From positions 1 through 17,853 of IMG/VR virus record IMGVR_UViG_2877285697_000004: a stretch of 17,853 bases of DNA; one strand, written 5' to 3'. Position numbers and translations under genes: made by a program. Source of the stretch: a virus (Duplodnaviria > Heunggongvirae > Uroviricota > Caudoviricetes). Shown one piece after another: positions 4,505-6,825 of the stretch (position 1 is the first letter of the stretch; the number at the start of each line of letters is the position of its first letter). The notes beneath the pieces are model-generated. The model saw only the letters and a list, made by a program, of their open reading frames with translations, was not told the origin of the DNA and searched no databases.

Positions 4505-4775
4505 GGTCCTCCTGATGTATTCGGCTTGCCTTATTTAATTGCGTCATGGTTAATTTCGTTTACGTCAGAATGGTTTTGTTGCCATCAGTTCGTAATATCC
4601 GGCGCTCCATGTGTCATATTTTCTGAACCATTTTTCTGTATACTGTTTCCTGGCGATGAGTCTGCGCAGTCGTCTGATTGTTCGCTGGTGTGCGCGGGTA
4701 TACTCTGTGGTTGATTCTCCACGTTTCCATATTGAGGTGTACTGGCAATAGCGGACACTACCATTTGTTCTTTTT

Positions 4776-5681
4776 TTAAGCAGCCATCTGATGATATTTT
4801 TCCCTGAAGGCTGCCGGGGAGATATTCCCCAGACGAGAGTGACGACGCTGACGATTGTAGAAAATCTCAATGTATTCCCGTATTACTGAGATGGCTTCAT
4901 CCCGGTTATTAAAACGATAGTGGCTCAGGCTCTCATTTTTCAGCGTTCCCCAGAAGCTTTCCATCGGAGCGTTGTCGTAACAGTTACCTTTACGCGACAT
5001 TGATGTTTTCAGACCAAACTGCTCCTGTATGACCCGGTAATCGTATGCGCAGTACTGTGAACCTCGATCAGAGTGGTGGATTAGCCCGGCAGGTGGGCGC
5101 TGGCTCCTGAGCGCCATAAACAGGGCTTTACCTGTCAGCTCTTTTGTCATGCGCTCTCCCATGGCGTAGCCGACAATTTCGCACGTATAAACATCTTTGA
5201 TGCCAGCGAGGTACAACCATCCCTCCTGTGTGGCAACATACGTCAGGTCCGCCACCCAGACCTGATTTGGTGCTGTAGGAGCGAACGTCTGGTTCAGCAG
5301 ATTTGGCGCAACTGGCAGATTGTGGTTCGGGTTCGTAGTCGCTCTGAACTTGCGTTTCTGCTTACAGAGTAGCCTTAGCTCCTTACGAAGACGTGCCAGT
5401 CGGTCACGACCAACGATGATGCCATTCTCTGCCAGCTCCGTCTGGAGCCGCCGGGTTCCATATGTTTCGCGAGTGCGGATATGTGCCACCTTAATCTCCA
5501 GTTTTAGCCGCTCATCACTTTGTTTTCTGTCTGAGGGTTCATGCTGTACCCAGTTGTAATAACCGCTCCTGGATACACCAAATACCTGACACATCGCTTC
5601 AATGGGAAATTGTTGTCGCCATTGTTCGATTAACGCGTATTTTTCAGCGACTCCTGTGCAAAATACGCTGTTGCTTTTTTT
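4776..5681 (-). CDS. IS3-family transposase OrfB (DDE catalytic domain), expressed as an OrfAB fusion by -1 frameshift; 5' limit approximate
   Basis: Track ORF 4776-5594 (272 aa) has an rve-type DDE integrase core (..WVADLTYV.., ..HHSDRGSQY.., ..NAPMESFWGTLK..). Hand translation shows this frame stays open upstream to the A7 slippery run (..KKSNSVFCTGVAEKYALIEQWRQQFPIEAMCQVFG..). Confidence 0.8.
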   Translation of the reverse strand, partial: KKSNSVFCTGVAEKYALIEQWRQQFPIEAMCQVFGVSRSGYYNWVQHEPSDRKQSDERLKLEIKVAHIRTRETYGTRRLQTELAENGIIVGRDRLARLRKELRLLCKQKRKFRATTNPNHNLPVAPNLLNQTFAPTAPNQVWVADLTYVATQEGWLYLAGIKDVYTCEIVGYAMGERMTKELTGKALFMALRSQRPPAGLIHHSDRGSQYCAYDYRVIQEQFGLKTSMSRKGNCYDNAPMESFWGTLKNESLSHYRFNNRDEAISVIREYIEIFYNRQRRHSRLGNISPAAFREKYHQMAA

Positions 5682-5932
5682 AATATATCTCGCTCAAGGC
5701 GAGCTTCATTTAACGCCTTACGCAGTTGCAGAATTTCAGATTCCAGTTCAGCCACCGTGCGGGAACCAGGAGTACCGAGCCCTTTTCTGGCGGCGGTAAC
5801 CCATTGTCCTAAAGTGCCTTCAGGAAGGGATAATCGGGAAGCGCCTTCACTGATCGAAAGTTGATTTTCAAGAACCGTTCTGACAGCTTCGGCTTTGAAC
5901 TCTTTAGAGTAACGTTGGGTTTTTCTGCTCAT
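5630..5932 (-). CDS. IS3-family transposase OrfA (helix-turn-helix), 100 aa
   Basis: MSRKTQRYSKEFKAEAVR...LRKALNEARLERDILKKATAYFAQESL: the conserved IS3-family OrfA pattern with leucine zipper and the KKA(T/S)A(Y/L)F motif at the frameshift window. Confidence 0.85.
   Translation of the reverse strand: MSRKTQRYSKEFKAEAVRTVLENQLSISEGASRLSLPEGTLGQWVTAARKGLGTPGSRTVAELESEILQLRKALNEARLERDILKKATAYFAQESLKNTR
5675..5681 (-). promoter_or_regulatory. Programmed -1 ribosomal frameshift heptamer A-AAA-AAA at the OrfA/OrfB overlap
   Basis: Minus-strand sequence TTA AAA AAA GCA in the OrfA frame; the -1 frame continues into OrfB. This is the canonical IS3-family arrangement. Confidence 0.6.
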
Positions 5933-5986
5933 TATTAGCTCCTTCTGATGCCATTCTATTTCAGGAAGGAGTGTCCGTTAAACTCA

Positions 5987-6825
5987 GGCTACCTCAGGGG
6001 GATAAGCAGCGGCAGCGCTACCAGGCACAGTTGCACATCCGGCAGGAATACCGGCAACAGTTGCAACAGCTTGAGAATGACAGTCGCCAGAAAGGCACTT
6101 ACGGGACGGAGGACTACCGGAGGGCTGAGGAGGTGCTGAAGGGGAGCCTGAAGCGACAACTGAATGAAAACAAACGCTACTGGCAGGAACTGGAAGTGGC
6201 GCAGGGCGACTGGAAAAACGGTGCCATGCGGGCGTTTCAGAATTTTACGGCGGATGCGGATAATGCGGCGGGAACGGCAGAACAGATGTTTACAGTGGCA
6301 TTCAGCAGTGCCGGTAATGCACTGGCGACATTCTGTACCACCGGTAAGCTGAATTTTAAATCCTTCACCTCTTCCCTGTTGTCAGATATGGCCAGAATTA
6401 TGGCACAGATGGCCATGATGCAGGCGGTAAAGGGCGTCGGTTCTTTATTCGGCTTCACGACTAATGCTGATGGCGGTGTTTACCAGTCTGCTGATTTGAG
6501 TCGCTACAGTGGCACGGTGGTTAACCGTCCGACGTTTTTTGCTTTTGCAAAAGGCGCGGGTGTGATGGGGGAAGCGGGACCTGAAGCCATTCTGCCACTG
6601 CGTCGCGGTGCTGATGGTAAGCTGGGGGTTGTGGCGGATACTGGTGGTTCAGGCATGGTGATGTTTGCCCCGCAGTACAACATTGAGATCAATAACGACG
6701 GCACGAACGGGCAGATAGGTCCGGCTGCCCTGAAGGTGGTTTATGACCTCGGGAAAAAAGCGGCCGCGGACTTTATGCAACAGCAGGCCCGTGATGGTGG
6801 CCGGTTAAGTGGAGCATACCGGTAA
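5987..6825 (+). pseudogene. H: Tail tape-measure protein gpH, 3' remnant (about 279 codons), 5' part removed at the IS3-family element
   Basis: Translation ...YWQELEVAQGDWKNGAMRAFQNFTADADNAAGTAEQMFTVAFSSAGNALATF... matches the C-terminal third of lambda gpH. The reading frame is open from the IS boundary with no native start. Stop TAA overlaps the M start (TAATG at 6823-6827), as in lambda. Confidence 0.85.

Follow-up and report, generated by a model that had tools for sequence, protein, structure and literature searches.

IS600-associated loss of the core of a prophage lying between yecE and yecD on a Shigella-type chromosome

How did the early-left arm of a lambdoid prophage come to lie against the middle of its own tape-measure gene H, with nothing but an insertion sequence (IS) between them? 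The question is raised by IMG/VR record IMGVR_UViG_2877285697_000004 (Caudoviricetes), of which positions 1 to 17,853 were analysed and are called here the window. An exact-protein look-up located the window in CP026827.1 (GCA_002949935.1), a 4.56-Mb chromosome that by its content is of Shigella type. A preliminary description, made from the sequence alone, had read the IS3-family element at this point as the trace of an IS-mediated deletion or recombination. That reading has held: an IS600-associated deletion of the prophage core almost certainly took place, the grounds being that the two flanks of the element lie 28.5–30.1 kb apart in relatives, that the element has no target duplication, and that the two arms stand in order between yecE and yecD. 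The element and the sequences that meet at its two ends are the following.

4733-5996, minus strand: complete IS600 (IS3 family), by inverted repeats, Pfam domains and RefSeq identity
5630-5932, minus strand: orfA of IS600, with HTH_Tnp_1 (Pfam)
4776-5594, minus strand: orfB of IS600, with HTH_21 and the rve, rve_2 and rve_3 catalytic core (Pfam)
4730-4732: left 3-bp flank, TAT, by direct reading; unlike the right flank
5997-5999: right 3-bp flank, GGG, with which a G5 run in H begins, by direct reading and alignment
4565..4732, minus strand: 3' stump of a 130-aa early-left gene (last 55 codons and stop), collinear at 99.6-100% with the intact gene
5997..6825, plus strand: remnant of tape-measure gene H (last 275 codons and stop), with Pfam Tape_meas_lam_C only

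The IS3-family element is a complete IS600 of 1264 bp, and its identity and ends could be observed directly. A repeat finder gave a single pair of 27-nt imperfect terminal inverted repeats (4733-4759 and 5970-5996, with arms 70% complementary), and the ends, TGAGGTGTAC...GGCTACCTCA, start with TG and finish with CA, which, like the length of about 1.26 kb, is as expected of IS600. The two-open-reading-frame organisation (orfA with HTH, orfB with DDE/rve) is present; the pair is called as a fused 385-aa transposase in the source genome, and a 'programmed frameshift' is annotated on 99.8%-identical RefSeq copies. For the window copy, the -1 frameshift is taken from the annotation of these near-identical copies. 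Identity is 99.8-99.9% to RefSeq/PGAP copies named 'IS3-like element IS600 family', the comparison being with annotated copies. Copies in related loci are 99.6-99.9% identical to that of the window, with one at 98.3%, and the element was matched by megablast in 3,604 of 5,426 complete E. coli genomes. The preliminary description was correct in placing an IS3-family element here, but its span of 4505-6000 began 228 bp too far to the left of the true start at 4733: position 4505 is the end of a neighbouring 62-aa gene rather than of the IS, and 4505-4732 is phage DNA, collinear with relatives at 99.6-100%.

The left joint (4732/4733) is unambiguous. In alignments with relatives that have no IS at this spot (CFSAN029787, VL7S7 and loci L022 and L025), these read ...TTTCCATAT/CTCATTCCCG..., where the window reads ...TTTCCATAT/TGAGGTG. 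The early-left stump matches the intact gene of the same four exactly up to 4732; this gene belongs to phrog_1886 by PHROG assignment (function unassigned), and its 5' part was lost at the IS junction. At the right joint (5996/5997), the sequence is ...GCAGGTAT/GGGGGATAAG... in intact tape-measure genes and ...CTACCTCA/GGGGGATAAG in the window. From 5997 on (from 5998 for CFSAN029787), the H remnant is 99.9% identical to intact H genes, whose full-length product in relatives has 1013 aa. It had been described as opening abruptly at the edge of the IS with about the last third of H present; the first part is right, the frame beginning exactly at 5997, whereas the 275 codons amount to only about 27% of the gene. 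The remnant has neither of the N-terminal domains TMP_2 and TMP_4 (Pfam) of a full-length lambda-type gpH of about 1000 aa, and is a gene fragment, not a functional gpH. The program-listed open reading frame (ORF) at 5971-6825 draws its GTG and nine codons from the IS, and a biological start of its own is missing.

With these corrected boundaries the order is TAT, IS600, GGG, and the earlier remark that no matching short direct repeat surrounds the element still stands. The missing repeat is meaningful because all nine other IS600 copies in the fetched related loci, taken as controls, have perfect 3-bp duplications (ATG, GTT, GTA, CAC, CAT, CAT, GTT, CAG and CTT). The lack of a 3-bp target-site duplication (TAT versus GGG) bears on the type of insertion, not on the identity of the element as IS600. 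A contrast within the window itself is provided by ISEc60 in tail gene J, which has a 9-10 bp duplication (GGGAAACGTC) and is a simple insertion. Therefore, the IS600 copy of the window, set against the duplicated controls and the duplicated ISEc60, is not a simple insertion.

What is missing between the two joints was defined with near-complete relatives of the prophage from enteroinvasive E. coli (EIEC), namely CFSAN029787 (NZ_CP011416.1) and VL40 (NZ_CM177011.1). In these, the two flanks of the window IS600 are non-adjacent and the whole phage core lies between them. The preliminary description had proposed aligning the window to an intact related prophage, and the alignments gave the following.

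CFSAN029787: integrase and yecE site as in the window; collinear over window 1-4732 at 99.6-99.8%, bar its own IS600-like insertion at window-equivalent 4505
CFSAN029787, H match: window 5998-8451 is record 2445 to 1; missing interval is record 2446-32559, 30,114 bp
VL40: another integrase, located at mlrA; collinear over window 1612-4732 at 99.5-100%, bar its own IS600 at window-equivalent ~4588
VL40, H match: window 5997 is record 3261362; missing interval is record 3261363-3289849, 28,487 bp

The lost interval runs from inside the small early-left gene to about codon 738 of H. By annotation, it contains the rest of the early-left genes, a LexA/XRE-type repressor with the gene beside it, Rha, and the replication functions, among them a DnaB-type helicase; then antiterminator Q, four tRNAs, holin, lysozyme and a lysis protein; both terminase subunits, portal, protease, decoration, capsid and head-tail joining genes; and finally the genes for the tail tube, G and T together with the 5' 73% of H. 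Among the genes called across the window there is none for a repressor, replication, lysis, terminase, capsid or the proximal tail, as had been claimed, and all of these were found in the homologous interval of CFSAN029787 and VL40. Neither repressor/cro nor the replication, antiterminator, lysis, terminase and head modules of an inducible lambdoid prophage were called in the window, the early promoters are gone, and the tail is incomplete. The judgement that the prophage cannot be inducible was thus borne out, and the remnant is locked and cannot produce phage.

Every aligned stretch of both arms is 94.8-99.9% identical at the nucleotide level between the window and these two prophages, which share with it the gene order int-xis-early left ... 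H-M-L-K-I-J-lom-tail fibre. As in the window, ipaH follows the tail fibre in VL40, while none was seen at the CFSAN029787 locus. The relatives differ from the window in keeping the core of 28-30 kb, and their IS600 copies, located elsewhere in the early-left region, are simple insertions flanked by 3-bp duplications. The CFSAN029787 prophage (loci L003 and L004) begins at yecE and ends beside potB instead of yecD, and the chromosome has probably been rearranged between two prophages; its tail genes H, M, L and K, together with G and portal, are annotated as frameshifted. In VL40 (locus L032, 7141-8784), an intact ipaHe of 547 aa lies beside the tail-fibre genes and a dinI-like gene, at mlrA. 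The VL40 prophage looks essentially complete, and is a candidate for a still-mobile ipaH-converting phage.

The chromosomal surroundings of the remnant were also read directly. To the left of int are genes with Pfam families matching yecE (DUF72), yecN (MAPEG), cmoA, cmoB and torZ, and the same neighbours are named in CFSAN029787. To the right of ipaH are dinI and then Pfam families matching yecD, aspS, nudB, yebC, ruvC, ruvA and ruvB. In K-12, yecE and yecD are direct neighbours, and on that basis both arms have presumably kept the position, order and orientation that they had at first. What happened looks like a deletion internal to one prophage. A fusion of left and right arms from two prophages by chromosomal rearrangement was considered and rejected, the remnant being bounded by yecE and by dinI-yecD-aspS. 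Between the two prophage ends, we could not find any att core repeat longer than 11 bp.

As to how the deletion arose, we are inclined, if only slightly, towards recombination between two IS600 copies, which would have removed the central 28-30 kb of the prophage and left a single intact IS600 at the joint. The order of events that we infer is as follows. An IS600 would first have entered the early-left gene, and a second, in the same orientation, would have entered H at its G5 run; homologous recombination of one copy with the other would then have excised the intervening DNA as a circle. Its product would be one hybrid IS600, with the left flank TAT from one copy and the right flank GGG from the other, and the outer flanks of the window IS600 are non-matching, as this route predicts. 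The first step is plausible because the early-left region has repeatedly been hit by IS600 in relatives: independent insertions that each carry a duplication of their own and share the orientation of the window copy are found at window-equivalent 4505 (CFSAN029787 and L021), ~4588 (VL40) and 4732+172 (VL7S7). IS600 is among the five IS that have expanded in all Shigella species, whose genomes hold hundreds of IS copies each, and deletions in Shigella have been attributed to recombination between homologous IS copies (PMC7373316).

The hypothetical parent with the insertion in H would read GGTATGGG/IS/GGGGGATAAG, with a duplication of GGG. Several points weigh against the two-copy reading. Neither a single-insertion parental state nor the joint was found in the 5,426 complete E. 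coli genomes, in about 20 related Shigella/EIEC loci or in the GTDB species representatives, Shigella genomes being covered in this search through exact-protein look-ups only. The second IS600, in H, is thus far hypothetical, and an adjacent deletion by one copy yields an identical end product. Among the E. coli genomes, seven records covered at least 80% of the query, and all have IS600 at other positions; each of the exact junction patterns of 26-28 nt gave no match in the GTDB representatives. The observation named beforehand as contrary to a deletion, a matching repeat together with a natural adjacency of the early region and mid-H, was likewise looked for and not found in the E. coli genomes, the related loci and the GTDB representatives. 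In locus L013, H is split into 726 and 276 aa at nearly the same point with no IS present; this was followed as a possible excision scar and rejected as a coincidence. The joint falls just after an in-frame ATG of H, and gene callers choose that start when a defect lies upstream, as in L013.

A deletion adjacent to one copy is possible, if somewhat doubtful. In that case a single IS600, most likely the early-left copy, would have stayed in place while its orfA-proximal end (5996) was joined to the G5 run of H and 28-30 kb were removed, either by transposase-driven intramolecular transposition or by a flanking deletion of the excision-enhancer (IEE) type. One intact IS, without a duplication and with one flank old and the other new, would result here as well; the early-left region is a demonstrated landing zone of IS600, and none of the relatives examined showed an IS600 in H. 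Because the early-left region is so often hit, either route is plausible. However, IS3-family elements normally transpose by a copy-out-paste-in route through a circle, and do not by themselves delete the adjacent DNA, whereas with the many IS600 copies of Shigella genomes a recombination between two of them needs no special activity.

An assembly artefact, in which two real IS600 copies flanking a surviving core were collapsed into one, is improbable. Collapse over identical 1.26-kb repeats is a known failure mode, and the exact H-remnant protein is on record from one contig only, listed for two samples. But the sequence on record is a closed chromosome of 4.56 Mb, the flanks follow one another on it in the right order and orientation, and independent marks of decay (ISEc60 in J, a nonsense codon in an SPFH gene and a frameshifted ipaH) fit a long-dead prophage. 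Because the H-remnant protein is on record from this single contig, the deletion looks specific to the strain or to a narrow lineage; the same 90% protein cluster contains many truncated tape-measure proteins of varied lengths from S. flexneri and S. sonnei, several of them labelled partial. Finally, a simple insertion of IS600 into a phage with the early-left region and mid-H naturally adjacent, and no deletion at all, can be dismissed as wildly improbable: nothing was found in its favour, the 3-bp duplication present in nine of nine controls is missing, both flanks run on into different genes in every relative examined, and the H frame is without its own start at the joint.

Events of this kind, in which a prophage core is lost in association with an IS in a Shigella-type genome, are already well known. 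What Hawkey et al. (2020, PMC7373316) describe, IS-mediated deletion and the decay of prophages in Shigella and EIEC genomes, resembles the window in the organism group, in IS600, in the loss of DNA at or between IS copies and in the nearby pseudogenes, whereas the window joint (from the phrog_1886 gene to H codon ~738, between yecE and yecD) is in no other genome searched. The defective Shiga toxin (Stx) prophage of Shigella dysenteriae type 1, in which IS600 copies lie at the edges of the retained cargo region, is similarly lambdoid and has kept virulence cargo while losing phage functions (PMC7819885). In that prophage, however, the cargo stx lies between two still-recombining IS600 copies, while the window has one IS600, with its cargo (lom and ipaH) 8-11 kb away. 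McDonough and Butterton are said to have described, in 1999, IS600-mediated amplification and deletion of stx. A third system is the IEE of E. coli that produce Shiga toxin (STEC): as far as the account of Kusumoto et al. [quoted passage not shown] IEE, though, is encoded on SpLE1-like elements of STEC and its events often remove the IS too, whereas the IS600 of the window is intact.

Besides the sequences at the joints, the remnant keeps int, xis and a few early-left accessory genes on the left, and distal tail genes, lom and a damaged ipaH on the right.

1..1314, minus strand: prophage integrase, 437 aa, full length, with Pfam Arm-DNA-bind_2 and Phage_integrase
1370..1606, minus strand: excisionase, 78 aa, with Pfam DUF1233 (putative excisionase, E 9.5e-33)
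6825..9139, plus strand: distal tail genes M, L, K and I, apparently intact, with Pfam Phage_min_tail, Phage_tail_L, Prok-JAB and NLPC_P60, and Lambda_tail_I
9200..13983, plus strand: tip attachment gene J, split by ISEc60, with Pfam J domains on both halves and collinear with intact J on either side
10071..11364: ISEc60 (IS4 family), 1294 bp, in J
14051..14650, plus strand: lom (Ail/Lom outer membrane protein), full length, with Pfam Ail_Lom over 1-199 of 199 (E 1.7e-128)
16729..17853, minus strand: ipaH, 3' 1125 nt (NEL E3 ligase domain, Pfam NEL), the 5' part lying beyond the window in a different frame

The placing of int and xis to the left of the element was confirmed by Pfam. In the source genome, the 3' end of the integrase gene overlaps yecE, and window 1-4505, integrase included, is 99.8% identical to CFSAN029787, whose yecE-adjacent integrase is equal in length. 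Two other genes of this arm were of note. The SPFH/Band 7 lipoprotein gene (3489-4319, minus strand) is divided by a single in-frame stop into ORFs of 155 and 118 aa, against 276 aa in relatives, and is a nonsense pseudogene. An early-left protein of 189 aa (2130-2699, minus strand) carries conflicting annotations: its RefSeq name is 'beta clamp domain-containing', with Pfam DNA_pol3_beta_2 at sub-threshold level only, and its PHROG match is labelled RusA-like resolvase (E 1e-63).

On the right, M, L, K, I, J, lom, the tail fibre and the NEL domain of ipaH were confirmed by Pfam. The program-listed ORF at 9200-11344 is an in-frame fusion of the first half of J with the ISEc60 transposase (DDE_Tnp_1). 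The prophage had been said to retain both lom and ipaH; this is so for lom, which is full length, but doubtful for ipaH, which in the source genome is split near codon 84. The window contains the last 374 codons of ipaH, and in the source genome (locus L028, 9375-11125) upstream ORFs and tblastn frames put residues 1-84 in one frame and residues 63-547 in another. The break lies near a AAATCCCCCGGG run (C5G3), and the split may reflect a genuine frameshift or an error in sequencing a homopolymer. An identical 374-aa ipaH product has been called at another locus, beside IS elements, in three further Shigella-type chromosomes.

The early-left stretch itself has been a frequent target. Within about 400 bp there are four independent IS600 insertions, all oriented alike and each from a different EIEC/Shigella lineage, at window-equivalent 4505 (L002/L021), ~4588 (L001), 4732 (the window) and 4732+172 (L005), and an IS1 is found in the same stretch, at ~4522-4530, in L023. 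The way in which these loci were selected favours IS contexts, and no statistic is claimed for the clustering. It may be speculated, though this is unlikely, that the short stretch separating the ParE-like gene from the 62-aa membrane-protein gene is a preferred target of IS600, repeatedly seeding core deletions that lock prophages carrying ipaH and lom. If so, the landing zone would be a recurrent and directional route to prophage domestication, not random decay.

The deletion described here brings nothing biologically new: deletions driven by IS, and the decay of prophages, are textbook features of Shigella genome reduction. For annotation, it identifies a fragment of H, a truncated early-left gene, and pseudogenes of J, the SPFH gene and ipaH, and the deletion joint could serve as a marker of the strain or lineage. 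In short, the locus provides a base-pair record of how one ipaH-associated prophage became a fixed remnant, with a defined reference for what was lost.

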